From Dehalococcoidia bacterium (GTDB lineage: Bacteria > Chloroflexota > Dehalococcoidia > Bin125), in contig OZ242037.1 of NCBI GenBank assembly GCA_965205165.1, positions 1,706,576-1,770,575 on the forward strand: a stretch of 64,000 nt of DNA, written 5' to 3'. The notes below the pieces were generated by a model, which was not told the DNA's origin, did no database searches, and saw only the letters and a program-made list of their open reading frames with translations. The position numbers and the translations under genes are program-made. Of this stretch, positions 843-22,351 are shown in pieces. Every line of letters starts with the position of its first letter. Positions within the stretch are counted from its first letter, which is position 1.

Positions 843-2222
843 ATGCTGACCGAAATCACCCTAGAAAACTTCCGCTGCTTCCACGAGCAACAAACTGCCC
901 GCTTGGCCCCCCTCACCCTTTTGGTGGGCGAAAACAGCACCGGTAAGACATCCTTCCTAGCGCTGCTTCGAGCGCTAGCGGAGTTCGCCAACACTGGCGA
1001 GACCCCCAGATTTACCGAACCGCCATATGAACTCGGCTCGTTTGCGGACATTATTCATCATACCGAAGGCAACCTCAGACCGCAATCCTTCGATGCTGGT
1101 TTCACAGCGATCTATCCTCGTCGTGGGCCTGTGAAACCAAATGTTCCGATCTCTTTTTCCGTGACGTTTGAAGAGCATGCTGCTACACCTGTGCCTGTCA
1201 GACGAAGAATCTCACATGATGAAGCATGGATCGAAGATCGCTTAATTCAGAAAGCGAACTATAGTATTATATGCCATACTCGCCGTGGCGACTGGAGTAT
1301 CCCGTTTCGCCGCTTCGAAGCAGAGTACGGTGAACTAGGCGACTACAGTCGTACCTTGAGCACCGCATTGCGGCCTCTTCGATGGCCCGGTGTTCAGCAT
1401 GCAGATATAGATATCGATCTTTTCCATCCAATCGCGGCTTCACCTAAGATCGCCGAAGCGGACATTATTGAGCTTCGGAATGTTGCAGAACGTTATTTTT
1501 TTAGTTACCGTGGACAAATAAGCGATCATACATATGCCGGAGCTCCGATCCGATCGCAACCACAACGCACATACCGCCCATCTCGCCCAACTCCAGATCC
1601 GGAAGGAAATTACATTCCTTCGTATTTTGCTGATCTTTCAGTTCGAGACCCCAAGGAATGGCAAATTCTCAAAGGTGAACTTGAAAAATTTGGGAGAGAT
1701 GCTGGGCTATTCGACTCAATCGGTATCATGCAGTATGGCGAGGCAGGTAGCGGTCCGTTCGAAATCCAAATCTATCAAGGAGACAACAAACCTCAGCGTG
1801 CGAGAAATTTGATCGACATGGGATACGGGGTGAGTCAGGTCTTGCCAATAATCACAGAGTTACAGCGCCCAATTCCACGACGAAGCACATCAACACAATA
1901 TCTGCTACAGCAACCGGAAGTTCACCTGCATCCAAGTGCTCAAGCCGCACTCGGATCGCTCCTGTGTAACCTTGCATCCGAGCAGAGACAGCTGTTCGTG
2001 GAGACTCACAGCGATTATATCGTGGATCGTATACGATGGGATGTCCGTGATGGTCGGACAAATCTTCAAGAGAAGGATGTGTCAATCCTCTATTTCGAAC
2101 GACGAGGCACGGATGTCATGATTCATTCACTGGAACTAGATGAAGAAGGCCAAGTTAACGGGCAACCAGAGAGTTACCGAAAATTCTTCACGGCCGAAGT
2201 TCGACGCCAGCTGGATCTCTGA
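843..2222 (+). CDS. AAA-family ATPase (RecF/ABC-like, AAA_21/AAA_15-type), likely the ATPase of a two-gene abortive-infection or defence-like module
   Basis: The N-terminus 'ITLENFRCF...LTLLVGENSTGKTSFL' is a Walker A P-loop. The downstream 'LLQQPEVHLHP...LFVETHSDYIV' gives Walker B/D-loop and signature-like motifs. A TATGAT -10-like box lies about 20 nt upstream. The gene is AT-richer than its surroundings. Confidence 0.75.
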   Translation: MLTEITLENFRCFHEQQTARLAPLTLLVGENSTGKTSFLALLRALAEFANTGETPRFTEPPYELGSFADIIHHTEGNLRPQSFDAGFTAIYPRRGPVKPNVPISFSVTFEEHAATPVPVRRRISHDEAWIEDRLIQKANYSIICHTRRGDWSIPFRRFEAEYGELGDYSRTLSTALRPLRWPGVQHADIDIDLFHPIAASPKIAEADIIELRNVAERYFFSYRGQISDHTYAGAPIRSQPQRTYRPSRPTPDPEGNYIPSYFADLSVRDPKEWQILKGELEKFGRDAGLFDSIGIMQYGEAGSGPFEIQIYQGDNKPQRARNLIDMGYGVSQVLPIITELQRPIPRRSTSTQYLLQQPEVHLHPSAQAALGSLLCNLASEQRQLFVETHSDYIVDRIRWDVRDGRTNLQEKDVSILYFERRGTDVMIHSLELDEEGQVNGQPESYRKFFTAEVRRQLDL

Positions 2223-2223
2223 C

Positions 2224-2709
2224 ATGTGTGCCATCGTTGATGCCAGTGGCGCGAACGATGTGTTCGGTAAGAACCGCCCAGAGATCGGGAGTACGTTTTT
2301 TGATTGGATCAACGATCATGGTCGCATTCTGACTGGCGGAAAACTAACAATGGAGATCGGTGATCTGTGCCCACGCTTTCTCGAGTGGGCGAAAGAAGCT
2401 GAAAGGACAGGTAAATTAAAAAGAATGAGTCACTCGAAAATTCACAGAGAGATAACCGAAGTCATCAAGCGTAAGCATGGTGGTTCTCCTTTGAACGATG
2501 CCCATATACTCGCCATTGCCCGCCTAGGCGGAGCGCGACTGTTGTATGCAAACGATAAAGACTTGTTGGAAAACTTTGTCGATTCGCACCTTGTCTCGCG
2601 TCCACAAGGTGACACATTGACGAGCCTCACTGGGGGCCGCGTCACCGATGAAGATCGAGAAATATTGGAGCGAGCAACAGAGAGATGTCGCCGGCAGAAG
2701 TCCGGGTAA
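2224..2709 (+). CDS. Small partner protein of the AAA ATPase with a PIN-like acidic-residue pattern (possible nuclease)
   Basis: An ATG lies 1 nt after the ATPase stop, suggesting translational coupling. The 'MCAIVDASGAND...NDAHILAIARLGG...LLYANDKDL' segment has a PIN/TOPRIM-like arrangement of conserved Asp residues. The gene is low in GC. The family assignment is tentative. Confidence 0.45.
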   Translation: MCAIVDASGANDVFGKNRPEIGSTFFDWINDHGRILTGGKLTMEIGDLCPRFLEWAKEAERTGKLKRMSHSKIHREITEVIKRKHGGSPLNDAHILAIARLGGARLLYANDKDLLENFVDSHLVSRPQGDTLTSLTGGRVTDEDREILERATERCRRQKSG

Positions 2710-2727
2710 GACTAAAATAGCACCTCC

Positions 2728-4083
2728 CTACCCTGCCACCGTCTCATACGCCCCCGCCACTTGGCACACCGTCGCCTCGTCCCAGTGCCGCCCGCCGATC
2801 ATCAGCCCGATCGGCAAACCCTTCTCGTCAAACCCGCATGGCACCGAAATCGCTGGAATCCCCGTCACGTCAAACGGCGCCGTCAGCCTCGCCAGCTCCG
2901 CAGTCGGATCCCCGTCTTCGATCAGCGGCGCAGTCCGCGAACAAGTCGGCGACACCAGAACATCGACTTGCTCCAGCACACCCCGCGTCTCCTCGATGAA
3001 CTTCCGCCGCAATCGCTGGTCGTTGATGTAATCGACCGCGCTCACCGTGAGCCCCGCCTCGATCCGTGGCAGGATGTCGCCGTATTCGTCCCGCCGCTCG
3101 CGCAGCCACTTCTCGTGGTAGGCCGCCGCCTCCGCGATGATCGTCAGGCCGCGCCCGCTCCCCGTCTGCAGCGGCAACTCGACCTCTTCCACCACCGCGC
3201 CCAGCCCGCGCAGCACATCGACCGCCTCCGTGCATGCCGTCGCGACTTCGTCGTCCACTCCGTCCCACAGCATCTTCGTCGCCAGCCCGATCTTGAGCCC
3301 GGAGATCTCCTCGCCCAACTTCGCCGCCGCGTCGTCCACCGGCCGCTCCGCGCTGCCGGGGTCCGCCGGGTCGTGCCCCGCGATCGCGTTCAGCACCAGC
3401 GCCGCGTCCTCCACCGTCTTCGCCAGCGGCCCCACGTGGTCCAGCGTCCACGAGAGCGGCAGCACGCCCGCCCGCGAGACGCGACCGTACGTCCCCATCA
3501 GCCCGACCACGCCGCACAGCGACGCCGGTATCCGGATGCTCCCGCCCGTGTCCGACCCCAGCGCCGCCAGCGACGAACCGACCGCGACCGACGCCCCGCT
3601 GCCGCCGCTGCTCCCGCCCGGCGAGCGCTCTTCATCCCACGGATTCCGCACCGCCCCGAAATGCGGATTCCGGCTCGTCGTCCCGAACGCGAACTCGTGC
3701 AGGTTCAGCTTCCCCGGCATCACCGCGCCCGCCTCCTGCAGCTTGCGGTACACAGTCGCGTCCGCCTCCGGCACCCGCTCCCGCAGGAAGCCCGATCCTC
3801 CCGTCGTCGCAATCCCCGCCGTGTCCACCAAGTCCTTCAGCGCCACCGGAATCCCGTGCAGCGGCCCCAGGTCGCGCCCGTCCCGCAGCGCCGCGTCCGC
3901 CTCCGCCGCCTGTTCCCGCGCCAAGTCCCCCGTCACCGTGATGTACGCGTTCAGCCGCGGCTCCGTCTCCGCGATCCGCCCCAGCACCGACTCCGTCAGC
4001 CCCGCCACCGTCAACGATCCGTCCCGCAGCGCCGCCCCCGCCTCGACGATCGTCAACTCATGCGGCTGCCGCTCCCCGGCCAT
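2728..4083 (-). CDS. Amidase (amidase-signature family, GatA-like)
   Basis: A full-length 451-aa ORF carries the amidase-signature region 'GGSSGGSGASVAVGSSLAALGSDTGGSIRIPAS' with the Ser-cisSer-Lys catalytic residues in context. Confidence 0.9.
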   Translation of the reverse strand: MAGERQPHELTIVEAGAALRDGSLTVAGLTESVLGRIAETEPRLNAYITVTGDLAREQAAEADAALRDGRDLGPLHGIPVALKDLVDTAGIATTGGSGFLRERVPEADATVYRKLQEAGAVMPGKLNLHEFAFGTTSRNPHFGAVRNPWDEERSPGGSSGGSGASVAVGSSLAALGSDTGGSIRIPASLCGVVGLMGTYGRVSRAGVLPLSWTLDHVGPLAKTVEDAALVLNAIAGHDPADPGSAERPVDDAAAKLGEEISGLKIGLATKMLWDGVDDEVATACTEAVDVLRGLGAVVEEVELPLQTGSGRGLTIIAEAAAYHEKWLRERRDEYGDILPRIEAGLTVSAVDYINDQRLRRKFIEETRGVLEQVDVLVSPTCSRTAPLIEDGDPTAELARLTAPFDVTGIPAISVPCGFDEKGLPIGLMIGGRHWDEATVCQVAGAYETVAG

Positions 4084-4086
4084 CGC

Positions 4087-4284: not shown

Positions 4285-4383
4285 CGCGCCGCCTCCGAAT
4301 CGCCCGCGAGTATAGGCCGCTCCATCCACCTCCGCGCCTGCCTCTATCCTGCCGCCAACGCGCACCGAACGCAGGAGGCAGCC

Positions 4384-5172
4384 ATGGCCGATGAAGTCCT
4401 GTTCGACATCCACGAGCGGGTGGCCACCATCACGCTCAACCGCCCGGACAAGATGAACACCATCAACGCCGCACTCGGCTCGCAGCTGATCGAATCGCTC
4501 CTCGAAGTCCGCAACAACGACGCGATCCGCGCCGCCGTCATCACCGGCGCGGGCGACCGCGCCTTCTGCGCCGGCGCCGACCTCACCCAAGGCGACGGCC
4601 CCGCCGCCAGCGCCGGACCGGCCGGCCACTTCCAGACCGACGCGCGCCCCCGCTTCGACGAGTTCGACGCCAAGAAGCCGCTGATCGCCGCCATCAACGG
4701 CCACGCCCTCGGCGGCGGCTTCGAAATCGCCCTCGTCTGCGACCTCCGCATCGGCGCTGAAAACGAGCGCGCGCGCCTCGGCCTGCCCGAAATCACGCTC
4801 GGCTTCTTCCCACTCGCCGGCGGCCCCATGCGCCTCCCCCGCGCCATCCCGCAGGCCTACGCCAACGAAATGCTCTTCCTCGGCCGCCGCCTCGACATGC
4901 AGACCGCCCTCCAATGGGGCCTGATCAGCCGCCTCGTCCCCCAGGACCAGCTGCTCCCCACCGCCCAGGAGATGGCCGGCCAGATCGCCGGCTACGCCCC
5001 CATCGCCGTCCGCGCCCTCAAGGAACTCATCTACGCGCAGACCGACATGACCCTCGACCAAGCCAACCGCTTCGGCGCGAGCCTCCGCTGGATCGTCGGC
5101 CAAACCGCCGACTCCAAAGAAGGCCCCCGCGCCTTCGCCGAACGCCGCACCCCCGAATTCAAAGGCGAGTAG
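4384..5172 (+). CDS. Enoyl-CoA hydratase/isomerase (crotonase fold)
   Basis: The 262-aa product contains 'ITLNRPDKMNTIN...AFCAGADL...INGHALGGGFEIALVCDLRIG', which are crotonase motifs. Confidence 0.9.
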   Translation: MADEVLFDIHERVATITLNRPDKMNTINAALGSQLIESLLEVRNNDAIRAAVITGAGDRAFCAGADLTQGDGPAASAGPAGHFQTDARPRFDEFDAKKPLIAAINGHALGGGFEIALVCDLRIGAENERARLGLPEITLGFFPLAGGPMRLPRAIPQAYANEMLFLGRRLDMQTALQWGLISRLVPQDQLLPTAQEMAGQIAGYAPIAVRALKELIYAQTDMTLDQANRFGASLRWIVGQTADSKEGPRAFAERRTPEFKGE

Positions 5173-5210
5173 CGGGCCGGCGACCAATCTCGCGGGAGAA
5201 AGGCAGACCA

Positions 5211-6323
5211 GTGGAACTTCACGATCAGCTCGTGGCACTCGCCCAGCGGCTTCCCAGCCTCCAAGGCAGTCTGCAGACCGAGGAGGCCACCAAGCACGCA
5301 CTGGTGCTGCCGTTCATCGCGGCGCTCGGCTACAACGTGTTCGACCCCGCCCAAGTCATCCCGGAGTACGTCGCCGATGTCGCTGGCCTGAAGGGCGAGA
5401 AGGTCGATTACGTGCTCATGCACGACGGCGTGCCAGCGGTGCTGATCGAGTGCAAACAGGCGAATGTTGAGCTGCTTGACCGCCACCTTGCTCAGATCTC
5501 GCGGTACTTCACTCGAACGCCAGCCAAGATCGGCGTCCTCACGAACGGCATCGTGTACCGGTTCTTCACGGACCTTACCGAGCCGAATGTGATGGACGAT
5601 GAGCCGTTCCTCGCCTTGGACCTCCGCCAACTAGATACGGACGCGGTCAAGGAGCTTCACCGAATCACGCACGATCGCCTCGATCTGGACGGGATGGTCG
5701 AGGCCGCACGCGAGCTCTCGTATCTCAACGGCATGCAAGCAGTGCTTGCACGGCAGTTGACGGAGCCCGACGAAGATCTGGTTCGGTGGCTGGCCGGGCA
5801 GGTGTACAACGGCAGGCTCACAGAGTCGGTCCGTGCCGAGTTCGCCGAGAGAACGAAGAATGCCTTCCGCTCTCTGATCAACGATCGCGTGAATGAGCTC
5901 GTAAAGCGCGCCGCTGAATTCCAGAAGGCCGACTCGGCCGCCGACGCTGATCTAGAGGAAGAGATCGGCGGAGCCGACGAGGACGATCTGGACCCGGACG
6001 ACGAAGGCGACGGCATCGTCACGACTGTGGAGGAGATGGAGGCCCTCGACCTGATTCGGGCGATCTTGGCAGACACAATCAGCGCCGATCGCGTGGTGAT
6101 GCGCGACAACAAGGCCTACTGCGCCATCCTCCTCGACGACAACAACCGCAAGCCGCTGGTCCGATTGCGGTTCGGCAAGCGCAAGAAGGTCATCGGGCTG
6201 TTCGACGCCGAGAAGAACGAGACCAAGTACCCCATCAGGTCGCTCAACGAGCTGTACCGATACCATGATGAGCTGTGCGAGACCGTCGCGCGCTACGACG
6301 AGAATCGAGCAGACGATGACTGA
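5211..6323 (+). CDS. Stand-alone type I restriction enzyme HsdR N-terminal-like (PD-(D/E)xK nuclease fold) protein
   Basis: The segment 'LVLPFIAALGYNVFDP...EKVDYVLMHDGVPAVLIECKQANVEL' fits the D...E-x-K core of the HsdR_N family. It is followed by an acidic Asp/Glu-rich tail. A GTG start follows the RBS 'GGGAGAAAGG'. GC is lower than in the neighbouring genes. Confidence 0.6.
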   Translation: MELHDQLVALAQRLPSLQGSLQTEEATKHALVLPFIAALGYNVFDPAQVIPEYVADVAGLKGEKVDYVLMHDGVPAVLIECKQANVELLDRHLAQISRYFTRTPAKIGVLTNGIVYRFFTDLTEPNVMDDEPFLALDLRQLDTDAVKELHRITHDRLDLDGMVEAARELSYLNGMQAVLARQLTEPDEDLVRWLAGQVYNGRLTESVRAEFAERTKNAFRSLINDRVNELVKRAAEFQKADSAADADLEEEIGGADEDDLDPDDEGDGIVTTVEEMEALDLIRAILADTISADRVVMRDNKAYCAILLDDNNRKPLVRLRFGKRKKVIGLFDAEKNETKYPIRSLNELYRYHDELCETVARYDENRADDD

Positions 6324-7506
6324 CCGCCTCCCCCTCGAAGACCTGTTCGTCCTCGACCTCACCCGCGCACGCGCCGGGCCCACCGCCACGCGCCAGCTCG
6401 GCGACTGGGGCGCAGACGTGCTCAAAATCGAGCAGCCCGCCGCCAAGGGCGCGGCCGACGGCATCACCGGCGACCGCGAATCCAGCGACTTCCTCAACCT
6501 CCACCGCAACAAGCGCTCGCTCGGCCTCAACCTCAAGGAGCCCGAAGCCCGCGACATCTTCATGCGCCTCGCCGAACGCGCCGATGTCGTCGTCGAAAAC
6601 TACCGGCCCGACGTCAAGCGCCGCCTCGGCATCGACTACGAAGCCGTCAGCGCCGTCAACCCCCGCATCATCTACGGCTCGATCTCCGGCTTCGGCCAAG
6701 ACGGGCCCTACGAGCGACGGCCCGGCGTCGACCAGATCGCGCAGGGCCTCGGCGGCCTCATGTCCGTCACCGGACTGCCCGGCGGCGGACCCGTCCGCGT
6801 CGGCATACCGATCGCCGACCTCTGCGCCGGTAACTTCCTCGCCCAGGCCATACTGATCGCGCTGATCGACCGCGGGCGCACCGGCAAGGGCCAGTGGGTG
6901 CACACATCCCTGCTCGAAGCGCAGATCGCGATGATGGATCTGCAAGCAACACGCTGGCTGATCGATGCTGAAGTGCCCGGCCAAGCCGGCAACGACCATC
7001 CCACCCTGATGCCGACCGGCGTCTACGAAACCAGCGACGGCCACATCAACATCGCCGCCGCCGGCGGCCTGCTCTACGAGCGCATGTGCCAAGCCATCGG
7101 CTCGCCCGAACTGATTGACCACCCGGACTACGCCACCACCGTCCAGCGCAGCGACAACCGAGACGCGCTCAACGCGGCGATCAATTCAAAAACCCGCGCC
7201 AAGACCAGCGCCGAATGGATCGACATACTCAACGAAGCCGGCGTCCCCTGCGGCCCGATCTACGACGTCGAGCAGACCTTCGCCGACGAACAGGTGCGGC
7301 ACCTCGGCCAAGCCCGCCCCGCGCCCCACCACGAGCGCGGCGAAGTGACCATCGTCGGCCAGCCGATCAACCTCACCGCAACCCCGCAACCCGCAAGCAT
7401 GCGGCTGCCATGCCCCCAACTCGGCGAGCATACCGACGATGTGCTCGCCGGGCTCGGATACGACCAAGCGCAGATCGCCGACCTCCATGAGCGCGGCATC
7501 GTCTGA
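6316..7506 (+). CDS. CoA-transferase family III (CaiB/BaiF)
   Basis: The N-terminus 'LEDLFVLDLTRARAGPTATRQLGDWGADVLKIEQP' and the family-wide length and motifs match. The start overlaps the upstream stop. Confidence 0.9.
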   Translation: MTDRLPLEDLFVLDLTRARAGPTATRQLGDWGADVLKIEQPAAKGAADGITGDRESSDFLNLHRNKRSLGLNLKEPEARDIFMRLAERADVVVENYRPDVKRRLGIDYEAVSAVNPRIIYGSISGFGQDGPYERRPGVDQIAQGLGGLMSVTGLPGGGPVRVGIPIADLCAGNFLAQAILIALIDRGRTGKGQWVHTSLLEAQIAMMDLQATRWLIDAEVPGQAGNDHPTLMPTGVYETSDGHINIAAAGGLLYERMCQAIGSPELIDHPDYATTVQRSDNRDALNAAINSKTRAKTSAEWIDILNEAGVPCGPIYDVEQTFADEQVRHLGQARPAPHHERGEVTIVGQPINLTATPQPASMRLPCPQLGEHTDDVLAGLGYDQAQIADLHERGIV

Positions 7507-8325: not shown

Positions 8326-8370
8326 ACGCTCTGGTACAAGTGTGCTAGTGTGACGCCCAGAGGAGGCAAG

Positions 8371-13113: not shown

Positions 13114-13174
13114 ACCGTTAGTCATTGATGGAGATTCTGCCGCCGGAGTTCGACCGCTGGAAGACCTGATCGGG

Positions 13175-13192
13175 AGGCGCTATCCTGCGGGT
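13175..13192 (+). promoter_or_regulatory. Recurrent promoter-like motif GCGCTATCCTGCGG (approximate coordinates) ~25-30 nt upstream of the LLM oxidoreductase start
   Basis: The same 12-14-mer containing a TANNNT-type -10 hexamer (TATCCT) recurs upstream of at least four other genes in the window. It is followed by GAGGAGG and an ATG. Confidence 0.45.
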
Positions 13193-13213
13193 CTGCGCTG
13201 AGGAGGTGTCGCC

Positions 13214-15551: not shown

Positions 15552-17207
15552 ATGGCCGATTTCAACGCGGTCAACCGCGGTGTTTATGTGGCCGACAATC
15601 TGGAATTCCTGCGGCGCTTGAATGACGAGTGCATCGACTTGGCCTGCATCGATCCGCCGTTCTCGAAGGGCGACACGTTCGAGGGCGATCAGCTCAAACC
15701 CGATCTGTCCGACCACGAGCGCGAAGTAGAGCTGCGCCTGCTCCGAGGTTGGGGAATCCACGACGAGAACGACGCAAGCGACGCCGGCATCGCCTGGCCC
15801 GCGACGACGGCCGCCGGCTTCAAGGATGTCTGGTCGTGGGAACAGGATATCCATGAGGATTGGATCAAGGACTTGGCCGAGAACCACGCGCCGACGAGCG
15901 ATTTGATCGAGACGACGCGACTCATCCACGACGATCACATCGCGGCGTACCTCTGCTACATGGCGGTTCGACTAATCGAGATCCACCGCGTGCTCAAGCC
16001 CACCGGCAGCCTGTTCCTGCACTGCGACCACACGGCCAATGGCTACCTGCGCCAGCTGCTCGACAGCGTGTTCGGCAAAGACCAAATGCAGAATGAGATC
16101 ATCTGGTGCTATGCCCCCGCCGGCCGCCCGCCGAAGCGCGGCTTCCACCGCAAGCACGACACGATTTTCTACTACCGCAAGGCGAATGCGGGCTCGTTCA
16201 ATCATCAATACGGCCCGATGTCGCCGGAGACCTTGGCGACCTACTCGGAAACGGATGAAGAGGGCAGGCAATATAAGATCGCGCAGGGCGGGCGCCGAAC
16301 CTATCTCGATCAACAGCGCGGACGGCCGATCCCGTCGTGGTGGGATGACATTCCGTCATTCGGAACTGCAACGAATGCGCCGGAGCGCACGGGCTACCGC
16401 ACCCAGAAGCCGATCGCCCTCGCCGAACGCATCATCAGCGCCAGCACGAACGAGGGCGATGTCGTGCTTGACTGCTTCGCCGGCTGCGCATCCTCCGCGA
16501 TTGCCGCGGAGCGCTTGGACCGCAGATGGGTAGCCTGCGACCTGAACCCAAGAGCATGGACGGTGTTCAAGCGGCAATTCAGCAAGCCGAAGCTGGCGCT
16601 GTTGAGGTGCAGCGACGAAGTCTCCGGCCAAGCAGTATGGGGCGACGAGCCAGTCGTGACGGTGCACGGTCCCGGAAATCTGCCCGCTCGCACCTCGCAA
16701 GCCCAAGAGCAGCAGCCCGAGAAACGCGAACCGCACGAGCGTAAATTCAAGGTCCCCTCAAGCATCATCCCCGAAGAAGAGATGAAGGAAAAACTGCTGG
16801 AGTTCTCCGGCTACAAAGCGTGGTGCTGCGGTTTCGCCAACCGCCTGCCGGACGGCACGATCATCAAGACCACGCGCAACTTCCACTTGGATCACATCCT
16901 CCCCCGCTCGGAAGGCGGCTCCCATCAGATCATGAATCGTGCGCCAATGTGCCCATCACACAATCTCCGCAAGAGCACCCGTTCCGTGAATCTCGTTGAA
17001 TACCAGCGCGAGATCGCAGCCGCAGGCGAGCTCTGCGTCGAATCAATTGAGGAGCTCGTTGACCTACCGGAAGCCTATGAGTACGCACTAAAACTCTATG
17101 GCCAAGCCTATCAAGCTGATCAAAGAGTTAAGATTATGAAAACGAGCGTCTCAGTCTACCAGCAAACCACACTCAATCCCAATCGCCTAAGTGAGGTTAA
17201 CCGATGA
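15552..17207 (+). CDS. DNA methyltransferase (beta-class N6-adenine/N4-cytosine) fused to a C-terminal HNH endonuclease domain
   Basis: 'IDLACIDPPFSKGD' is motif IV (DPPY-type) near the N-terminus, and 'VVLDCFAGCASSAIAA' is the later AdoMet motif I. The C-terminal 'FHLDHILPRSEGGSHQIMNRAPMCPSHN' is an HNH motif. Confidence 0.8.
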   Translation: MADFNAVNRGVYVADNLEFLRRLNDECIDLACIDPPFSKGDTFEGDQLKPDLSDHEREVELRLLRGWGIHDENDASDAGIAWPATTAAGFKDVWSWEQDIHEDWIKDLAENHAPTSDLIETTRLIHDDHIAAYLCYMAVRLIEIHRVLKPTGSLFLHCDHTANGYLRQLLDSVFGKDQMQNEIIWCYAPAGRPPKRGFHRKHDTIFYYRKANAGSFNHQYGPMSPETLATYSETDEEGRQYKIAQGGRRTYLDQQRGRPIPSWWDDIPSFGTATNAPERTGYRTQKPIALAERIISASTNEGDVVLDCFAGCASSAIAAERLDRRWVACDLNPRAWTVFKRQFSKPKLALLRCSDEVSGQAVWGDEPVVTVHGPGNLPARTSQAQEQQPEKREPHERKFKVPSSIIPEEEMKEKLLEFSGYKAWCCGFANRLPDGTIIKTTRNFHLDHILPRSEGGSHQIMNRAPMCPSHNLRKSTRSVNLVEYQREIAAAGELCVESIEELVDLPEAYEYALKLYGQAYQADQRVKIMKTSVSVYQQTTLNPNRLSEVNR

Positions 17208-18517
17208 CTGAATCATCGTACTATGGGCTGTTTTGGCCAACATCCCAATCACGCCACCGCCACGCTGTGCCAGGACAGCTCAAAGTCGCGCCAACGGGTA
17301 AGCTGTCGCTTACCCTGTTCTCGCCCCATTATGATGCACGACCTCCGTGGTTTATCCCTCTTCCCGGCGATCCTGTTGAGCGATCTGTGTCGGGTGAGAT
17401 CTCGGGCCTTGGCGCTATCACCATCTTCCGTTGCGTGACCGGATCGCACACTCTATCATTCGGTCTAGATCAAATTATTGTCGCTGAGATGCTCTGTGGC
17501 GACGGTGCCGTTACACGTGTCGCCGCAAACTGCCATACCAGTCTTCGATTAAAGAACTTTACCCTTCCCGTTCCAGAGCTTTCATTATGGCGAGGAATCC
17601 CGTGGGTTCGTCCTGATGAGCACCGCCCTAGAAACGAATATGGATTTACTGTTACTCTTCCGGAATCGATCCGTGCGCAAGTGCAGCGCAATGAGCATCT
17701 GACGATAGATTATAGATATGAGCCGCAAGGAGGCGGAGCCAGCGACGATCGATTCAGCATCCGGTGCACACCAGCTGTAACATTAGCAGCAGCACATGGG
17801 CTCGATATTGATTGTGCACTCCAACGAATCCATGCGATAAAGGCATTCTTCATATTTCTACTAGATTCCCCGATCACTGAATCGCACCTTCTCTGCACCA
17901 TTGAGCAGCTAGCTCTTCGCCCTTCTGTGTGGATGCGAGATTTGCAGCACAATCGATGCGAATTGCTATTGACGCCCTTTCAATATAATTATCGCGAACG
18001 CAAACGCAATCTCCATGATGTTCTGCTGTTCGAGTCGGAGATAGTCTCAAATTTCAGCCAGATGCTCGAGCAATGGCTTCAGGTTTATACGACCGCACCT
18101 GAAGCCATTGTTCAATTCTTGGATGCCGTTCACAGTGAAGATTATAGACTTAATATTAAGTTTCTATTGCTCACCCAAGCGTTTGATGCCCTGCATCGAA
18201 CTAAAACGAAAGAGCAAGACAAGGCTTTCCGCGTTCGTCTTAATGATTGCCTAGCATCCTATCCAAGTTTGTTCGGTGATCAGGCTGCGCGACTTGATCT
18301 CATCGATCAAATTGTTCACACCCGCAATCGATATACACATGGCAGCGAGCGTCGGCCTGAATTTGAAGCTGGCGACGCAGAATTGTTCCCTCTTGCCCGA
18401 AAGATGGAAGCGATCATCATGGTATATTTACTGGATTGGCTTCTTCCAGATAACCATCAGTGGCCAACGCTGATCAAACAACGTCGGCCGTTCAAGGCAC
18501 GCATTAATCCAACATAG
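17204..18517 (+). CDS. Hypothetical protein with a C-terminal HEPN-like R-x4-H motif (Abi/ApeA-like candidate)
   Basis: Its ATG overlaps the MTase stop as ATGA. The gene is low in GC. The C-terminal 'LIDQIVHTRNRYTHG' fits HEPN R-x4-6-H. No other family was recognised. Confidence 0.5.
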   Translation: MTESSYYGLFWPTSQSRHRHAVPGQLKVAPTGKLSLTLFSPHYDARPPWFIPLPGDPVERSVSGEISGLGAITIFRCVTGSHTLSFGLDQIIVAEMLCGDGAVTRVAANCHTSLRLKNFTLPVPELSLWRGIPWVRPDEHRPRNEYGFTVTLPESIRAQVQRNEHLTIDYRYEPQGGGASDDRFSIRCTPAVTLAAAHGLDIDCALQRIHAIKAFFIFLLDSPITESHLLCTIEQLALRPSVWMRDLQHNRCELLLTPFQYNYRERKRNLHDVLLFESEIVSNFSQMLEQWLQVYTTAPEAIVQFLDAVHSEDYRLNIKFLLLTQAFDALHRTKTKEQDKAFRVRLNDCLASYPSLFGDQAARLDLIDQIVHTRNRYTHGSERRPEFEAGDAELFPLARKMEAIIMVYLLDWLLPDNHQWPTLIKQRRPFKARINPT

Positions 18518-18636
18518 TCAATCTGTTTTAATGTGATGGGGCGTGATGAAACACTAATGATATAGATGGAACAGAGAATTCGCCGCTGCGACATGAGACG
18601 CGCTGAAATTGTCTATCTGGCTATTGGATGCAACCG

Positions 18637-19122
18637 CTATCGCGTGGCCCAAGTAACCTGCCTCTCATCGCGTTGCACCTGATCCAGTGTCTGGTAATAG
18701 AAATGATGGAGGAACGGGAGCTGCGGCTCGCGGCCGTGTTGGAGGAACATCCAGAGCCAGAGGACGCGGCCGCTGCGGCCGTTGCCGTCCATGAAGGGAT
18801 GCAGGGTTTCGTAGCGGATGTGGGTCTGCCAGAGGTCGATCGGGTGGGTGTTGGCGTGATTGAGCAGGTCTGCAAGGTCGGTGCGGATTTTGGGGCCGCC
18901 TTGCGGCGGCGTGTGGTTGCCGACGAAGACGTTCATGCCGGGGTGTTCGCGGAGCTCGGCGTTGGCGCAGGTCCAGACGAACTGCTGCATGTCGCCGACG
19001 GTGATGTCGCGTTGGTCGAGGAACAGCTCGTGGGCCTCGATCTCCGCCTCGGTGACGCGGAAGATGCCCTCGATCCGGTTCGATTCTTCGACGAAGTCAT
19101 GCAGGTTGAATTCGCTGGGCAT
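18637..19122 (-). CDS. Fic/DOC-family protein
   Basis: It carries the canonical Fic motif 'HPFMDGNGRSGR' (HPFx[DE]GNGR). Confidence 0.85.
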   Translation of the reverse strand: MPSEFNLHDFVEESNRIEGIFRVTEAEIEAHELFLDQRDITVGDMQQFVWTCANAELREHPGMNVFVGNHTPPQGGPKIRTDLADLLNHANTHPIDLWQTHIRYETLHPFMDGNGRSGRVLWLWMFLQHGREPQLPFLHHFYYQTLDQVQRDERQVTWATR

Positions 19123-19132
19123 GTCGATTCTC

Positions 19133-20356
19133 CTAACCGATACCGGCTCGCCGGATGGCGGCGGGTGCCGCCGGGGCGGCGAGCTCCGAGAGTACCTCGG
19201 CCGTATCCGCGCCGAGCAGCGGCGGCGGGCGGCGGATGCGCCACGGGGTCCGGCCGAGCTTGTAGGGCGCGCCGGGGATGGTTTGTTCCCCGTCCGCGGT
19301 TTGGATTTCGCGCCAGAAGTCGCGTTGCGCCAGCTGGTCGGACTCGGCGACTTCGGCGATGGTATGGACGGGCTGGAAGCTAATCCGGTTGGCGGCGAAC
19401 TGCTCCCAGAGTTCCTGCTTGGTTCGTTCTTTCATCCACGGATGCCAGAGCGCGTCGATTTCGTCGGCCCATTGGAAGGCGGTCCAGCGGTTCTTGAGGC
19501 GCTCGTCGTGCTGCCAATCGGGATCGCCCAGCAGCTCCATGAAGCGGTTCCACTGATCATCGACCAAGGTGATGACCTCGAAGAATCCATCCTTGGCGGG
19601 CGCGACTTGGTACGGATAGAACGAATTCATGCGCACGCCGGCGCGGGAACGGTTCTGGCCGGCGAACAGATACGCGGCGACGCCCGCGCCGGCCATCACG
19701 GAGCTGACGATATCGACGATGCTGACCCAGACATGCTGCCCGCCTGCGCCGTTGCGGGCGGCGCGGCGGCCGAGCAGGGCGGCGATCGCGCCGTGGATGC
19801 CGCCTTGGAATTCGGGCGCGTTGTAGGGCAGGCCGAGCGGCGAGCGGTCGGGGTCGCCGATGCGGTAGGAGATGCCGGAGGCGAGCGAAGCGGTGAGCGA
19901 GGCGGCCTGCCAGCCTTCGCGGCGGGTGCCGATGCCCCACATCGTGATCGAGACCTGCGCGAGCTCCGGGTTGGCGCGCGCGAGGTCGTCCCAAGTCAAG
20001 CCGAGGCGTCGCTGGTCGGCGATGGGGCGGGAGGTGATCACGGCGTCGCTGGATGCGGTGAGCCCGCGGAAGAGCCGCCGCGCCGCCGCGGTTTCGAGAT
20101 CGAGCACGATGCTCCGCTTGTTGGTGTCGAGGAAGAGGTGCAGGCCGCCGCGCTCGCGGTGCGGGAGGTCGCGCGGGAACGGCCCGCGACGGCGGATGTC
20201 GTCGCCCTCGGGAGGCTCGATCTTGATCACGTCGGCGCCGAGATCGGCGAGCAGCTTGCCGGCGTAGGAGGCGGCGATGCCGCCGCCGTCCTCGATGATG
20301 CGCACCCCTTCCAGCGCGAGCGGAGGGTCGGCGACAGCGCCGTCGGCGTCGTTCAT
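19133..20356 (-). CDS. CoA-transferase family III (CaiB/BaiF)
   Basis: The N-terminus 'LEGVRIIEDGGGIAASYAGKLLADLGADVIKIEPP' and the family-typical length of 407 aa match. Confidence 0.85.
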   Translation of the reverse strand: MNDADGAVADPPLALEGVRIIEDGGGIAASYAGKLLADLGADVIKIEPPEGDDIRRRGPFPRDLPHRERGGLHLFLDTNKRSIVLDLETAAARRLFRGLTASSDAVITSRPIADQRRLGLTWDDLARANPELAQVSITMWGIGTRREGWQAASLTASLASGISYRIGDPDRSPLGLPYNAPEFQGGIHGAIAALLGRRAARNGAGGQHVWVSIVDIVSSVMAGAGVAAYLFAGQNRSRAGVRMNSFYPYQVAPAKDGFFEVITLVDDQWNRFMELLGDPDWQHDERLKNRWTAFQWADEIDALWHPWMKERTKQELWEQFAANRISFQPVHTIAEVAESDQLAQRDFWREIQTADGEQTIPGAPYKLGRTPWRIRRPPPLLGADTAEVLSELAAPAAPAAIRRAGIG

Positions 20357-20369
20357 GGCAGCGGATGAT

Positions 20370-20390
20370 AGCCGCTAGCCTGCGCGGGAT
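20370..20390 (+). promoter_or_regulatory. Variant of the recurrent motif (GCTAGCCTGCGCGG) upstream of the MBL hydrolase start
   Basis: One mismatch to the TATCCTGCGCGG core. It lies about 35 nt upstream of the ATG at 20420. Confidence 0.3.
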
Positions 20391-20419
20391 TGCGCGCCGC
20401 GCGCGGGTCAGGAGCCGCC

Positions 20420-21370
20420 ATGTCCACCGAGATCATCACGTCGCGCGACCAGCTGCCGGATCCGGAGCTGGTGGAGGCCGCGCCCGGCGTCTTCGCCTAC
20501 GTGCAGCACGATGGCTCGTGGTGCCTCAACAATCCGGCCTTCATGACCTCGGCGGACGGCGTGATCGCGGTCGACGCCTGCGCGACGGAGCGGCGGACGC
20601 GCGGATTCCGCGAGGCGATCGAGCGCATTTCGGAGCAGCCGGTGCGGACGCTGATCAACACGCACGCGCACTTGGATCACACGTTCGGCAATCACGTCTT
20701 CAAGCCGGACGCGACAATCATCGGCCACCGCAACACGCGGGCCGAGTTGCTGCGCGACCGGGCGGCGATGCCGGACCGCGCCAAGCTGATGTTCCCCGGC
20801 GTCGAGTGGGGCGATGTCGATGCGACTCCGCCGGATGTCACGTTCGACGAGGAGCTGGCGATCTACGCGGGCGATCTGGAGCTGCGGCTGATCTACGTAT
20901 CGCCGGCGCACACCAATACCGACGTGGTGATCTGGCTGCCCGAACACCGGACGCTGATTGCGGGCGACATCATATTCAACCAAGGCACTCCGTTCGCGCT
21001 GATGGGCAGCATCGCGGGCTGGCTGGATGCCCTGGAACGGCTGCGCGGGCTTGGCGCGGAGACGATCATCCCCGGCCACGGCCCGGTCTGCGGCCCCGAA
21101 GTATTCAACGAGGTGGCGGATTATCTGCGGTTCGTGCAGGCGACGGCGGCGGAGGCGCAGGCGACGGGAGCGCCGCCCCTGCAGGCCGCGCGGGAGGCGG
21201 ACTTGGGCCGTTTCGCGGAATGGCACGACAGCGAGCGGATCGTCGGCAACCTGCACCGCGCCTACAGCGAACTGAAGGGGGAGCCGAGGGGTGCGGAGAT
21301 CGATACGGGCAAGGCGTTCGGGGAGATGCTCGAATACAACGGCGGCGAGCCGTTGCGCTGCCTCGCCTGA
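20420..21370 (+). CDS. MBL-fold metallo-hydrolase
   Basis: The 'LINTHAHLDHTFGNH' motif is the HxHxDH zinc-binding signature. Confidence 0.8.
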   Translation: MSTEIITSRDQLPDPELVEAAPGVFAYVQHDGSWCLNNPAFMTSADGVIAVDACATERRTRGFREAIERISEQPVRTLINTHAHLDHTFGNHVFKPDATIIGHRNTRAELLRDRAAMPDRAKLMFPGVEWGDVDATPPDVTFDEELAIYAGDLELRLIYVSPAHTNTDVVIWLPEHRTLIAGDIIFNQGTPFALMGSIAGWLDALERLRGLGAETIIPGHGPVCGPEVFNEVADYLRFVQATAAEAQATGAPPLQAAREADLGRFAEWHDSERIVGNLHRAYSELKGEPRGAEIDTGKAFGEMLEYNGGEPLRCLA

Positions 21371-21398
21371 GCGGGATAGGCTGGCAGGGGAGCGGGCG

Positions 21399-21902
21399 AT
21401 GGAACGCGAGCTGACGCTGAAGTTCGAGGGGCCGGCCACGGAGCAGGTGCACATCCCGGTGCGCAGCCTGCTGGCCATCGTCGATGTGCTCGAGGGGGCG
21501 ATCCGCAAGCGCTGCGGCAGGCTGCACACGCTGAAGACGATGTGCGAGCTCGAAATCGTCTCCTTCGACGCGCCATCGAGCACCGCCCAGCTGCGCCTGC
21601 AAGGCCCCGAGGACTGCGAGCGCGCCTGGCGCTCGGAAGACCCGCTGCAGCGCGTGATGACGGAGCTCGAACGCACGGCCGGCGACACCCCGCACCTGCC
21701 GGGACGGCTGCGTTGCCAGATCGCGAGCAAGCTGGCGGAGGGGCTCCGTCGGGTTGAGTTCGCCGCGCCGGCATGCGGATCGCCGCAGTGGATCGTGTGG
21801 GACGAGCGCGAGTCGCGGCCGTTCAGCCTGCTCCGCCCGGAGGAGAAGATGCCGAACTTCGACGCCGAGGCGTTCAACGACTTGGTGGAGAGCATGCGCT
21901 GA
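21399..21902 (+). CDS. Hypothetical protein, putative cognate partner/antitoxin of the downstream PIN toxin
   Basis: A 167-aa ORF whose stop overlaps the PIN gene start. No recognised fold. The assignment rests on position only. Confidence 0.4.
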   Translation: MERELTLKFEGPATEQVHIPVRSLLAIVDVLEGAIRKRCGRLHTLKTMCELEIVSFDAPSSTAQLRLQGPEDCERAWRSEDPLQRVMTELERTAGDTPHLPGRLRCQIASKLAEGLRRVEFAAPACGSPQWIVWDERESRPFSLLRPEEKMPNFDAEAFNDLVESMR

Positions 21903-22351
21903 TGCCGGATGCGGAATTCAGCGGCATTGAGCTGATCGCCGACACGAACATCTTCTCGTACGAGATGTCCGATCAGCCGGAGTCGATCGAGATCGCGGCG
22001 CGCTACCGGCACGTTTGGGAGGGGCGGCGCGTCGGCTTGTCGTTTCAGTCTGTCGCCGAATTGCGCGTCGGCCTCGAACTGCAAGGGTGGGAGATCGGCC
22101 GATATGAAGAGCTGATGAGCCGGTTCACGCCGATCTATCTGCTGCCCGGGATCGTCGACGCCTATGTCCGCATCCAGGTCGAAGCGGCGCGGCGGGGGAG
22201 GGGTGAACCGGCACGGCGCTCGAAGGCGGGCGATGCGTGGGTGGGCGCGACGGCGCTGTGGCTGGGGGCTCCGTTGGTGACGCACAATGGGCGGGATTTC
22301 AGGGCGGCGGAGGCGCTGGGGTTGGAGGTGGTGAGCCATGGGGGGTGGTGA
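21902..22351 (+). CDS. PIN-domain protein (VapC-like toxin)
   Basis: 'IELIADTNIFSYE' carries the first catalytic Asp, followed by '...AWVGATALWLGAPLVTHNGRDF'. The ATG overlaps the upstream stop. Confidence 0.75.
   Translation: MPDAEFSGIELIADTNIFSYEMSDQPESIEIAARYRHVWEGRRVGLSFQSVAELRVGLELQGWEIGRYEELMSRFTPIYLLPGIVDAYVRIQVEAARRGRGEPARRSKAGDAWVGATALWLGAPLVTHNGRDFRAAEALGLEVVSHGGW

Follow-up and report, generated by a model that had tools for sequence, protein, structure and literature searches.

A probable core-flanked defence hotspot with fixed slots and exchangeable cassettes in an uncultured Dehalococcoidia bacterium

Introduction

The core defence hotspots of Pseudomonas aeruginosa are flanked by conserved genes, have low GC content, belong to no obvious mobile-element family and have been proposed to be transferred by recombination in their flanks (Johnson et al., 2023; PMC10250203), and hotspots are also described from the E. 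coli pan-genome (Hochhauser et al., 2023; PMC10121019). Here we analyse a stretch of 64 kb from a Dehalococcoidia bacterium of the Chloroflexota (assembly GCA_965205165.1, contig OZ242037.1, positions 1,706,576 to 1,770,575), hereafter the window, in which cassettes of predicted defence or toxin genes alternate with core genes of CoA metabolism over some 21 kb. An original prediction, made from the DNA alone, had read these cassettes as at least six mobile-type modules, each acquired separately by a permissive locus. Comparison with related genomes points instead to old slots whose contents have very probably turned over by recombination.

Several other described systems bear on what the slots contain. 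The ABC ATPase NsnB of Menshen, which has a DUF3696 tail, works with a PIN-like partner that is polymorphic and that it is predicted to clamp (PMC12065111). In 2008 a restriction-modification (R-M)-like nature was predicted for operons in which a GHKL ATPase is combined with an SF2 helicase and a nuclease, in a few cases one with an HKD domain (Iyer, Abhiman and Aravind; PMC2292703), and one validated variant of Shedu is a fusion of GHKL and nuclease (PMC12137116). Among the genes of the Ssp systems (PMC8092258), the DUF4007 protein is SspB, the large ATPase SspC and the PAPS reductase SspD (PMC12839542); according to the SspFGH paper, about 84% of sspBCD clusters have no known restriction partner.

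Old slots with exchanged contents

The same backbone order is common to ten related Dehalococcoidia loci: ilvD, amidase, enoyl-CoA hydratase (ECH), CoA-transferase (CaiB), ECH, luciferase-like monooxygenase (LLM), a conserved 397-aa protein (unk397), CaiB, a metallo-beta-lactamase-fold protein (MBL) and ECH. The slots between the backbone genes are also kept in the relatives (slot A between ilvD and the amidase, slot B between ECH1 and CaiB1, slot C between ECH2 and LLM); the remaining slots lie between unk397 and CaiB2 (D/D') and between MBL and ECH3 (E). The best of these loci, L001, comes from a Dehalococcoidia metagenome-assembled genome; it was located by a CaiB1 scan of one genome per species and was read on its right side up to position 21179, and its backbone proteins are 89–94% identical to those of the window. 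Further loci were found by searches with the GHKL, CaiB2 and HsdR-N proteins followed by contig look-ups; an LLM-protein scan of metagenome contigs gave only relatives at ≤ 64% identity, of no use for synteny. Closest to the window are L167 and L170 (95–99% nucleotide identity in the backbone), which derive from the same sample, are 97% identical where they overlap and are therefore counted as one conspecific strain. L168 (92–94% nucleotide identity) and L169 (83–92%) come next; L083 is a contig of 4.9 kb, and the core proteins of L081, L084, L085, L177 and L178 are about 70–92% identical to those of the window.

Against the conspecific strains, whose backbone is 95–99% identical in nucleotides, the window shows four sharply bounded replaced segments, namely the variable cassettes of slots A, C and D' and the variable segment of slot E (Table 1). 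The first three are GC-poor and the fourth is of normal GC. Thus the slots are old, as are some of the genes that occupy them, close relatives differ in the cassette or allele that they carry, and the changes have sharp boundaries within or at the edge of conserved flanking genes. The cargo of the slots is enriched in defence genes, among them GmrSD, NotI, ApeA, NsnB-like and PDC-M33A-like genes. We consider it very probable that the region is a core-flanked chromosomal defence hotspot, with homologous recombination in the conserved flanks as the means by which its cassettes are replaced.

Much of the original prediction is borne out by these comparisons. Its six modules were all recovered with the domains it had named (Pfam, PADLOC, NCBIfam), as were its metabolic genes (ECH, CoA_transf_3, Bac_luciferase and Amidase, with Lactamase_B in addition). 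The pairs of AAA with PIN and of a partner with a VapC-type PIN are present, with coordinates refined in Table 1. The idea of a permissive hotspot free of visible integrase or transposase genes also stands, as no such domains and no tRNA genes were detected, and so does horizontal transfer of the GC-poor segments, in place of which conspecific strains (backbone 96–99% identical in nucleotides) carry DNA that is unrelated or highly divergent. In contrast, the claim that each module is a separate insertion holds in part only. It agrees with the absence of the methyltransferase-HNH (MTase-HNH) gene, Fic and the slot D cargo from distant relatives and with the insertion footprint around the MTase-HNH gene in L001, but, by the refuting condition that the prediction itself had set, it fails for three modules because relatives with 70–90% core identity share the gene order with homologous genes: the AAA-PIN pair occupies the same site between ilvD and the amidase in L001, L177 and L178, HsdR-N the same site between ECH1 and CaiB1 in L081, L177 and L178 (64–65% identity), and the four-gene PP-loop/helicase/GHKL/PLD operon the same site between ECH2 and LLM in L081, L084 and L085. 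The short direct repeats suggested for the flanks proved to be chance-level words only. Taken together, these alignments are best read as fixed old slots with turnover of cassettes and alleles, rather than as six fresh insertions into an intact operon.

Base composition

GC content, which is 0.664 over the whole window, is far from uniform. When scanned in 500-bp windows over the 64 kb, with values < 0.58 taken as GC-poor, the sequence contains exactly three such stretches (701–2900, 9401–13300 and 16701–19000). These lie at 0.44–0.57, with dips down to 0.44–0.50, vs a mean of 0.685±0.028 and a minimum of 0.582 elsewhere. The three GC-depleted segments originally named are therefore real and the only ones below 0.58, but the drop within the slot C operon starts at ~9450–9600, inside the helicase gene, and not at 9240. 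All three stretches coincide with cassettes that differ from the conspecific strain.

Third-codon-position GC (GC3) separates the slot genes further. It is foreign-looking in the AAA ATPase (0.46), PIN1 (0.51), helicase (0.52), GHKL (0.49), PLD (0.42) and ApeA (0.46) genes and host-like in HsdR-N (0.81), PP-loop (0.84), MTase-HNH (0.76), Fic (0.85) and PIN2 (0.83), the core genes having 0.84–0.97. The values of 0.76–0.85 in the second group fit long residence. GC content also understates the extent of the slot C cassette, since the PP-loop gene, although of host GC, is part of what is swapped; it is lost together with the helicase-GHKL-PLD trio in L001 and L167–L169.

GC skew forms a second compositional contrast between the cassettes and the host genes. 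The coding strand is markedly rich in C, the skew being about −0.25 over positions 1–9000, with genes on the + strand, and between +0.3 and +0.55 from 22 kb on (22000–30000), with at least some genes on the − strand; the GC-poor cassettes have a coding-strand skew of ~0 to +0.2.

Slot A, an NsnB-like ATPase with a PIN partner

Every genome that covers slot A carries there an AAA_15 ATPase with a small partner. The ATPase of the window matches AAA_15 (6e-23) in Pfam, with DUF3696 just under its cut-off (21.4 vs 22 bits), and also matches PDC-M55A and AriA in PADLOC. It is 46–47% identical to the gene at the same site in every relative, conspecific L170 included, and the PIN partner, whose start codon is fixed by the start of the L001 partner (MCAIVDA), is 30–34% identical to the other alleles (30% to that of L001). 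Despite the divergence of this pair, the flanking genes of L170 are 97–100% identical to those of the window. The window allele is equidistant from the alleles of close and distant relatives. Nucleotide alignments with L170 and L001 end at 973 and 1013, 130–170 nt into the ATPase gene, and restart at 2726 and 2739, at the stop codon of the convergent amidase gene. We infer that slot A holds a two-gene, Menshen-related system, in which a Menshen/PARIS-like ABC ATPase would gate or control a small PIN nuclease.

Slot B, a solitary HsdR-N nuclease

In the HsdR-N protein (370 aa), the nuclease domain is followed by a long helical linker and a disordered acidic stretch, and the C-terminal domain is rich in beta structure. 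It belongs to a family of > 5300 members that are 45–50% identical and occur across Bacteria and Archaea, and its residues D66, E80 and K82 are invariant in 73 homologues. By its domains, it is probably a stand-alone restriction-type nuclease. The gene was originally described as set into the operon with overlapping stops and starts; the HsdR-N stop does overlap the CaiB1 start (ATGACTGA, 6316–6323), but ECH1 and HsdR-N are 38 nt apart. The arrangement suggests that the gene is translationally coupled into the metabolic operon.

Occupancy of slot B varies. HsdR-N is present in the window, in L170 (identical) and in L081, L177 and L178 (64–65% identity); in L001 the slot is empty, with only two base pairs ('cg') between the ECH1 stop and the CaiB1 start, and in L084 it is filled by ~900 bp of repeats resembling miniature inverted-repeat transposable elements (MITEs), with no remnant of HsdR-N. 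In the L084 repeats (2960–3760), a MITE-like unit of ~200 bp, bounded by the terminal inverted repeats CCGTCATTCCTGCGCAGGCAGGAATCC ... GGATTCCTGCCTGCGCAGGAATGACGG, occurs three times, and short CCCTTCCGTCATTCCTGCGGCC units are repeated in tandem. The first few codons of CaiB1 differ in every lineage, and the slot B junction has therefore been rebuilt repeatedly. We considered whether window positions 5176–5200 are a remnant of the original 5' end of CaiB1, which would prove the polarity of insertion, but dropped this idea because the CaiB1 N-termini of L081, L084 and L001 all differ and the junction is rearranged in every lineage.

Outside the clade, one HsdR-N context was inspected. The homologue P0320 (L171–L175) is solitary and lies between a gene with a SNIPE/T5orf172 nuclease domain, itself preceded by RtcB, and a 5'-nucleotidase gene. 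Another family member, P0288, has an additional HARE-HTH domain.

Slot C, a PP-loop-led operon that alternates with unrelated cargo

Slot C of the window contains four genes, for a PP-loop protein, an SF2 helicase, a GHKL ATPase and a phospholipase-D-family (PLD) protein. The PP-loop protein, whose PP-loop motif reads SLGAGVQS, falls below the Pfam PAPS_reduct cut-off (17.5 vs 22.5), a profile search of the PDB gave only chance matches for it, and its single-sequence AlphaFold2 model reached a pLDDT of 34. Its relatives do exceed the PAPS_reduct cut-off, and its subfamily counts 4272 cluster representatives. The helicase, read from its GTG, is 419 aa long, as is that of L081, and has the motifs GAGKT, DEAH and QMVGRAMR. 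The GHKL protein has intact Bergerat motifs (ELIDNSVDA, DDGLGM and GKYGVG; N, G1 and G2 boxes), has > 650 full-length homologues, and by sequence is closest in the PDB to human MORC2 (3e-5). The PLD protein has no Pfam match; it shows an HxK...GSxN motif (HAK...GSANVT), and its homologues on RefSeq plasmids (28–32% identity) are annotated 'phospholipase D family protein'.

Three mutually unrelated cargos alternate in this slot. The four-gene operon is found in the window, L083, L081, L084 and L085. The second cargo, in L001, L168, L169, L177 and L178, encodes DUF6339, a 670–710-aa PDC-M33A-like protein (PADLOC 8e-16), a protein of ~260 aa and a second, DUF6339-like paralogue; it spans L168:12082–16367, L001:12030–16286 and L177:13299–16788, the last with only the final three genes. 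The third, in L167 and L170 (L167:16726–19837 = L170:12978–13736), encodes a 227-aa protein, a helix-turn-helix plus Peptidase_M78 (ImmA/IrrE-like) protein and a short N6_N4 methyltransferase-like protein. The breakpoints lie at 8324–8328 and at 13125 or 13202, and the left alignments of the relatives end at 8323–8348.

Exchange also appears to have cut through the operon itself. In a sliding profile, the window and L083 are ~0.92 identical up to ~9450 and then 0.56–0.79 (~0.7) from ~9600 to 13044, and GC falls from 0.63 to 0.53 in step with identity, within ~150 bp at ~9450–9600. On these two profiles, the 5' part of the helicase gene contains a recombination breakpoint. The orthologous operons of L081 and L084 have a GC of 0.57–0.67, vs 0.45–0.57 for the window and L083 alleles, and the latter therefore form a distinct allele class. 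In every comparison, divergence of the operon grows from 5' to 3' (identity 76–94% for PP-loop, 60–77% for helicase, 54–77% for GHKL, 45–57% for PLD).

The helicase-GHKL-PLD order recurs in L081, L083, L084, L086 and L176. Plasmids of Geminocystis, Trichormus variabilis, Roseobacter litoralis and Hymenobacter show it as well, at identities of 41%, 33% and 30% for the three proteins, and Aminobacter and Agrobacterium have a more divergent version. Seven plasmid contexts were opened, and in six of them phosphorothioation-type genes are no more than ~7 kb away from the trio or its GHKL core. The genes concerned are a PAPS reductase, which may or may not be accompanied by DUF4007, a ~1100-aa ATPase and a DndB/DGQHR protein, or else a cysteine desulfurase, which in Cyanobacterium HL-69 is the sole such gene listed. 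The trios adjacent to SspBCD are on plasmids of Cyanobacteria, Bacteroidota and Alphaproteobacteria, and toxin-antitoxin pairs and integrases are also among the plasmid neighbours. The PP-loop protein of the window is 23% identical to the SspD-type proteins of these plasmids.

Many relatives of the PP-loop protein (P0363, P0365, P0366, P0368, P0369, P0479) are fusion proteins of ~540 aa in which an N-terminal DUF6339 is joined to a C-terminal PAPS_reduct domain. Full-length homologues at 35–46% identity, annotated as PAPS reductase-like, occur in phages (MW273922.1, GQ403789.1, JN880423.1, OP341628.1) and mycobacteriophage prophages; the hosts are very different and include Pelagibacter, Thermus, Salisaeta, Geobacillus, Mycobacterium and Synechococcus (HTVC034P, P23-77 and mycobacteriophages among the phages). 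A literature search on DUF6339 yielded nothing, and neither the literature searched nor PADLOC v2 holds a named system made up of PP-loop, helicase, GHKL and PLD genes.

In L176, DUF6339, a PP-loop gene 45% identical to that of the window, and the trio are consecutive, and genes weakly similar to the second cargo adjoin its helicase-GHKL-PLD cassette; L086 has a single such link, a 625-aa protein resembling the 621-aa protein of L176. With both kinds of gene adjacent in these two loci, we considered whether the first and second cargos are two halves of one system. This stays a lead, because it draws on weak similarity (25%, 1e-8) and on the DUF6339-PP-loop fusions; the two may be related systems.

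As to function, the gene content of slot C slightly favours an R-M-like system with both modification and restriction. The PP-loop enzyme would install a self mark, most likely sulfur-based, using a housekeeping cysteine desulfurase, and the helicase, GHKL ATPase and PLD dimer would translocate on, and cleave, unmarked DNA. It is rather unlikely that the PP-loop protein serves instead as a sensor or regulator, and a role outside defence takes the remaining, likewise small, share. More tentatively, and perhaps on the doubtful side, helicase-GHKL-PLD could be an unrecognised restriction module that partners PP-loop DNA modification and that, in this clade and in L176, takes the form of a minimal four-gene cassette; the cassette would be a new R-M family based on phosphorothioate or another PP-loop mark and would alternate in slot C with a DUF6339 sister system. 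If so, the trio would fill part of the gap left by sspBCD clusters that lack a known restriction partner.

Slots D/D' and E

The first gene of slot D joins a beta-class N6/N4 methyltransferase to an HNH nuclease. This MTase-HNH gene is fixed at the species level (82–97% identity in L001 and L167–L169) and is absent from L081, L084 and L177; its last 22–23 codons belong to the downstream D' cassette, as the exchanged segment runs from a point 66 nt ahead of the MTase-HNH stop codon up to that of Fic. The gene that follows is ApeA in the window; L169 and L001 also have an ApeA, only 19% identical to it, and L167 and L168 have a gene for a trypsin-like peptidase. Among the more distant relatives, slot D/D' is empty in L084 (233 bp between unk397 and CaiB2), holds GmrSD in L081 and contains a Dam-like methyltransferase plus NotI in L177. 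Five states are thus seen in this slot.

ApeA is reportedly a defence that works as a single gene (Gao et al., 2020, Science). The protein of the window scores 63.2 bits for ApeA_NTD1 and 37.4 for HEPN_Apea (cut-offs 25.5 and 24.4) and has the HEPN Rx4H motif (RNRYTH). By its domains, slot D thus appears to pair a fusion of methyltransferase and HNH with a downstream abortive-infection effector that can be exchanged, here the predicted HEPN RNase ApeA. In L001 the 3' end of unk397 is directly duplicated (18453–18597 and 20369–20514; 146 bp, 82% identity), and the two copies bracket the MTase-HNH gene. A remnant of this duplication forms a 52-aa open reading frame (ORF) between MTase-HNH and ApeA in L169 (13134–13292) and has been lost from the window. 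The duplication looks like the footprint of an older, original insertion of MTase-HNH by another route.

The Fic protein has the active-site motif HPFMDGNGRSGR, of the HxFx(D/E)GNGRxxR type, and an N-terminal SNRIEG inhibitory motif of the (S/T)xxxE(G/N) type; the active-site motif is canonical, and with both motifs present the protein looks auto-inhibited and class II-like. Its NCBIfam SoFic score (38.6 vs a cut-off of 550) sets it apart from the SoFic equivalogs. It is 92–99% identical in L167–L169 and absent from L081 and L084.

In slot E, a segment of ~570 bp is 44–67% identical in nucleotides to L168 and L169, without gaps, and 99% identical to L167, between flanks that are 95–100% (L168) and 86–97% (L169) identical. 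It takes in most of PIN2 and, of the 167-aa partner, the C-terminal third, so that the partner C-terminus and the PIN2 gene vary together. In this respect the PIN2 pair behaves like a toxin-antitoxin-type module with a co-varying interface.

Gene content of the window

As a high-GC genome yields many spurious ORFs, genes were chosen by codon-position GC and comparison with relatives (Table 1). The weakest of the domain calls are those for PLD, the PP-loop protein and PIN1, the last just over its cut-off. PADLOC called no complete known defence system at the locus, Pfam found no integrase or transposase domains in any ORF scanned, and there were no matches to tRNA genes or Rfam families across the 64 kb. 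The ilvD part at the left edge is 79–99% identical in amino acids in L170, L001, L177 and L178. Just outside the island, on the − strand at 24820–27468, lies an 882-aa protein of unusual architecture, a fusion of ParB_N, HTH_ParB and a luciferase-like monooxygenase, which is kept in L167 (845 aa).

Table 1. Slots, backbone genes and variable segments in the window.
Feature	Position	Strand	GC	Evidence or remark
Backbone: ilvD-type gene, C-terminal part (dihydroxy-acid/6-phosphogluconate dehydratase)	97..813	+		Pfam ILV_EDD_C 1e-74; left flank of slot A
Slot A gene 1: NsnB-like ABC ATPase	843..2222	+		AAA_15/AAA_21/DUF3696; PADLOC NsnB 5.5e-45
Slot A gene 2: small PIN protein (PIN1), 161 aa	2224..2709	+		Pfam PIN 24.5 bits vs cut-off 23.6
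Slot A variable cassette	974..2725		~0.49	blastn vs L170 (96-98.6% flanks) and L001
Backbone: amidase	2728..4083	-		Pfam Amidase 6e-119; 79-97% identity in relatives
Backbone: enoyl-CoA hydratase ECH1	4384..5172	+		Pfam ECH_1; start chosen by GC3 profile
Slot B: solitary HsdR-N-type PD-(D/E)xK nuclease	5211..6323	+		HSDR_N domain
Backbone: family III CoA-transferase CaiB1	6316..7506	+		Pfam CoA_transf_3; ATG start at 6316
Backbone: enoyl-CoA hydratase ECH2	7525..8325	+		Pfam ECH; left flank of slot C
Slot C gene 1: PP-loop/PAPS-reductase-like enzyme, phage-type subfamily	8371..9234	+		PADLOC SspD 5.7e-11
Slot C gene 2: SF2 (ResIII/DEAH) helicase	9227..10486	+		Pfam ResIII/Helicase_C; GTG at 9227
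Slot C gene 3: MORC-like GHKL ATPase	10462..12288	+		Pfam HATPase_c_3 68.7 bits
Slot C gene 4: single-HKD PLD-family nuclease, 274 aa	12289..13113	+		PADLOC DrmC 2.6e-9
Slot C variable cassette	8324..13201			Other cargo in L001, L167-L170, L177, L178
Breakpoint inside slot C operon	9450..9600			Sliding identity vs L083 and GC shift
Backbone: LLM	13214..14347	+		Pfam Bac_luciferase; 74-99% identity in relatives; right flank of slot C
Backbone: unk397	14347..15540	+		All relatives, 47-94% identity; faint Peptidase_M28 annotation only
Slot D: N6/N4 DNA methyltransferase-HNH fusion (MTase-HNH)	15552..17207	+		Pfam N6_N4_Mtase and HNH
Slot D' cargo: ApeA	17204..18517	+		ApeA_NTD1 and HEPN_Apea
Slot D' variable cassette	17142..18669		~0.47	Replaced in L167, L168, L169
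Minimal Fic protein, downstream of CaiB2	18637..19122	-		Pfam Fic 31.7 bits
Backbone: CoA-transferase CaiB2	19133..20356	-		Pfam; 70-98% identity in relatives
Backbone: MBL	20390..21370	+		Pfam Lactamase_B; 69-98% identity in relatives
Slot E gene 1: 167-aa partner of PIN2	21399..21902	+		No Pfam/PADLOC family match; orthologue in L168, L169
Slot E gene 2: PIN2 (VapC-like PIN)	21902..22351	+		Pfam PIN 38.3 bits
Slot E variable segment, gapless	21720..22290		normal	Partner C-terminus and most of PIN2
Backbone: enoyl-CoA hydratase ECH3	22391..23278	+		Pfam; 98-100% identity in L167-L169; right flank

How the cassettes may turn over

Homologous recombination in the flanks is suggested because the breakpoints are sharp at conserved genes, recombinase genes are lacking and slot E shows a gapless allelic replacement. 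Flanking direct or inverted repeats and target-site duplications were sought for every slot in the window, and the longest shared words were 6–8 nt, a chance level that 69–100% of random controls reach. DNA would reach another lineage by uptake or transduction, and recombination in the conserved flanks, rather than integrases of the cassettes' own, would then install the cassettes. The GC-poor cassettes (A, most of C, and D') would belong to an allele pool with a wider circulation than that of the high-GC core, and the GC-normal occupants (HsdR-N, PP-loop, MTase-HNH, Fic and the PIN2 pair) would be longer-term residents.

Several points weigh against this picture. Recombination and transfer are deduced from the sharp breakpoints together with the lack of repeats; the sample is ~10 loci, several of them partial; and no relative has an empty slot A or C, so that the original acquisitions are beyond reconstruction. 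The degenerate direct repeat of 146 bp at MTase-HNH in L001 points to a different insertion mechanism, Campbell-type or site-specific. There are also MITE-like repeats in slot B of relatives and insertion sequence elements around the four-gene cassette in other hosts, and transposition may contribute too. Finally, all of the defence functions are predictions from domains.

Two opposed histories could be set against exchange between fixed slots. That six mobile modules were inserted independently and fairly recently into an intact CoA-metabolism operon of this genome would agree with the three strongly GC-poor segments, with the absence of MTase-HNH, Fic and the slot D cargo from relatives at 70–77% identity, with the uninterrupted 2-bp ECH1-CaiB1 junction of L001 (no HsdR-N) and the 233 bp between unk397 and CaiB2 in L084, and with the 146-bp repeat around MTase-HNH in L001. 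We nevertheless judge it improbable, as the AAA-PIN pair, HsdR-N and the four-gene operon occupy identical positions at 70–90% core identity with homologues that are 45–78% identical, an empty slot A or C is seen in no genome, the window has no target-site duplications, and HsdR-N, PP-loop, Fic and PIN2 have a host-like GC3 (0.81–0.85). Repeated site-specific insertion, which might rescue the idea, needs a conserved target motif and an integrase, and neither was found. At the other extreme, the cassettes could be ancestral and inherited in a purely vertical way, their low GC and divergence having arisen in situ, without exchange, by arms-race evolution under AT-biased mutation. The synteny of the occupants across the clade and the 5' to 3' rise in operon divergence in all comparisons would suit this history. 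It is however quite unlikely given that conspecific strains with 96–99% identical flanks hold non-homologous cargo in slots C and D' and a slot A ATPase of 46% identity, that the slot A allele is as far from the alleles of close relatives as from those of distant ones, that identity and GC change abruptly, not gradually, within the helicase gene, and that the GC of the L081 and L084 operons (0.57–0.67) differs from that of the window and L083 (0.45–0.57).

The remaining alternatives concern the data and the function rather than the history. An assembly or binning artefact, in which the GC-poor pieces are chimeric joins from another organism, might be suspected from the metagenome-assembled, uncultured source and the extreme GC contrast, but can be given almost no weight: in the independent L083 assembly, too, a high-GC PP-loop gene gives way to a helicase gene of low GC, the HsdR-N junctions of L170 are identical, ApeA is at the same site in L169 and L001, the AAA gene and its partner are at the same site in L001, L177 and L178, and ORFs cross the junctions with overlapping stop and start codons. 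It could also be that several modules are housekeeping genes in a variable metabolic neighbourhood (HsdR-N in repair, the PP-loop protein in sulfur or tRNA metabolism, Fic as a regulator, helicase/GHKL/PLD in repair). This would account for the host-like codon usage of HsdR-N, PP-loop, Fic and PIN2, for the coupling of HsdR-N to CaiB1, for its very large and conserved family with one member beside RtcB and a 5'-nucleotidase gene, and for the lack of any complete known system among the PADLOC calls at the locus. Yet the relatives' slots are filled by unmistakable defence genes (GmrSD, Dam-like methyltransferase plus NotI, ApeA, PDC-M33A-like), the trio occurs on plasmids beside SspBCD, toxin-antitoxin pairs and integrases, and presence or absence at the strain level is atypical of housekeeping genes; we thus regard it as quite unlikely. 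The picture of a core-flanked hotspot that turns over by flank recombination is the one we retain.

Wider meaning

The window extends the concept of the core-flanked defence hotspot from Pseudomonas and E. coli to an uncultured, high-GC lineage of Chloroflexota, and does so in a fine-grained form: five small slots are threaded through a metabolic block, each with a turnover rate of its own, and one cassette shares stop and start codons with the operon. It also suggests how GC dips are to be read in such regions. They flag only the cassettes that are currently exchanging, and miss both ameliorated residents and GC-normal allelic swaps; the PIN2 pair of slot E varies at normal GC and therefore gave no composition signal.

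As a defence island the region is of an ordinary kind. Its newest content, the PP-loop-led helicase-GHKL-PLD cassette and the link to DUF6339, looks undescribed and offers two leads: in slot C, a widespread helicase-GHKL-PLD module repeatedly linked to PP-loop or SspBCD modification genes, and, in DUF6339, a partner of phage-type PAPS-reductase-like enzymes.

Comparison with known systems

Like Menshen (NsnABC), slot A has a DUF3696-tailed ATPase of the NsnB type, after which comes a PIN-like protein, and the partner with the PIN domain is extremely polymorphic. It differs in that NsnA (ParB-DUF262) is missing, the pair sitting directly between ilvD and the amidase with no third gene, and in that PIN1, at 161 aa, has no second, C-terminal effector domain such as that of NsnC. 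Moreover, the acidic residues of PIN1 appear to be present, as read from its sequence only, whereas the PIN-like domains of NsnC are described as inactive (PMC12065111).

HsdR-N shares the N-terminal PD-(D/E)xK nuclease domain of type I HsdR, but has no helicase (SF2) motor domain, and its neighbours are ECH and CaiB rather than hsdM and hsdS. ApeA matches the known protein in both Pfam domains above cut-off and in the Rx4H motif; here, however, it occupies an exchangeable position that overlaps the MTase-HNH stop codon and is taken by a trypsin-like peptidase in sister strains. PIN2 would correspond to the toxin of a VapBC pair, with an upstream protein of 167 aa that matches no family.

The trio of slot C has more than one counterpart. 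With the MORC/paraMORC operons (PMC2292703), which are laterally mobile and lie in hotspots, it shares a GHKL ATPase beside an SF2 helicase and a nuclease (HKD in a few of the published ones); the published partner is a DNA methylase, whereas here there is no methylase and a PP-loop gene leads (SspBCD on plasmids), and the published HKD is fused to the helicase, whereas here it is a separate protein of 274 aa. With Ssp (SspABCD plus SspE or SspFGH; PMC8092258) the cassette would have in common a PP-loop enzyme, probably of the PAPS-reductase superfamily, ahead of an ATP-dependent nuclease module, and on plasmids DUF4007, the ~1100-aa ATPase and the PAPS reductase directly adjoin the trio, in some cases joined by a DndB-like gene and a cysteine desulfurase. 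The four-gene cassette of the window, in contrast, is without SspB, SspC and cysteine desulfurase, and its PP-loop protein, 23% identical to SspD, belongs to a subfamily common to phages and DUF6339 fusions. SspFGH and PbeABCD were both considered as names for the trio and ruled out by domain composition; neither SspE nor SspFGH is related to it. PbeABCD (Xiong et al., 2019; PMC6459918; reinterpreted in PMC10853773) likewise combines a PLD nuclease, an SF2 helicase and a large ATPase with a PP-loop (DndC) module, but PbeA is a PLD-helicase fusion and PbeC a CxC-type ABC ATPase rather than a GHKL protein; the window has separate proteins, a weak PADLOC match to PbeA (7e-13) and no counterparts of PbeB or PbeD.

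At the level of the whole region, the likeness is to cDHS1 and cDHS2 of P. aeruginosa (Johnson et al., 2023) and to the E. coli pan-genome hotspots (Hochhauser et al., 2023), which are also core-flanked sites with strain-variable defence cargo of lower GC. In those, however, there is one large variable region, whereas the Dehalococcoidia locus, in its uncultured Chloroflexota host, has five small slots of 0.6–4.9 kb set one to three metabolic genes apart, one nuclease gene, HsdR-N, coupled into a metabolic operon, and some occupants that persist across species-level divergence.

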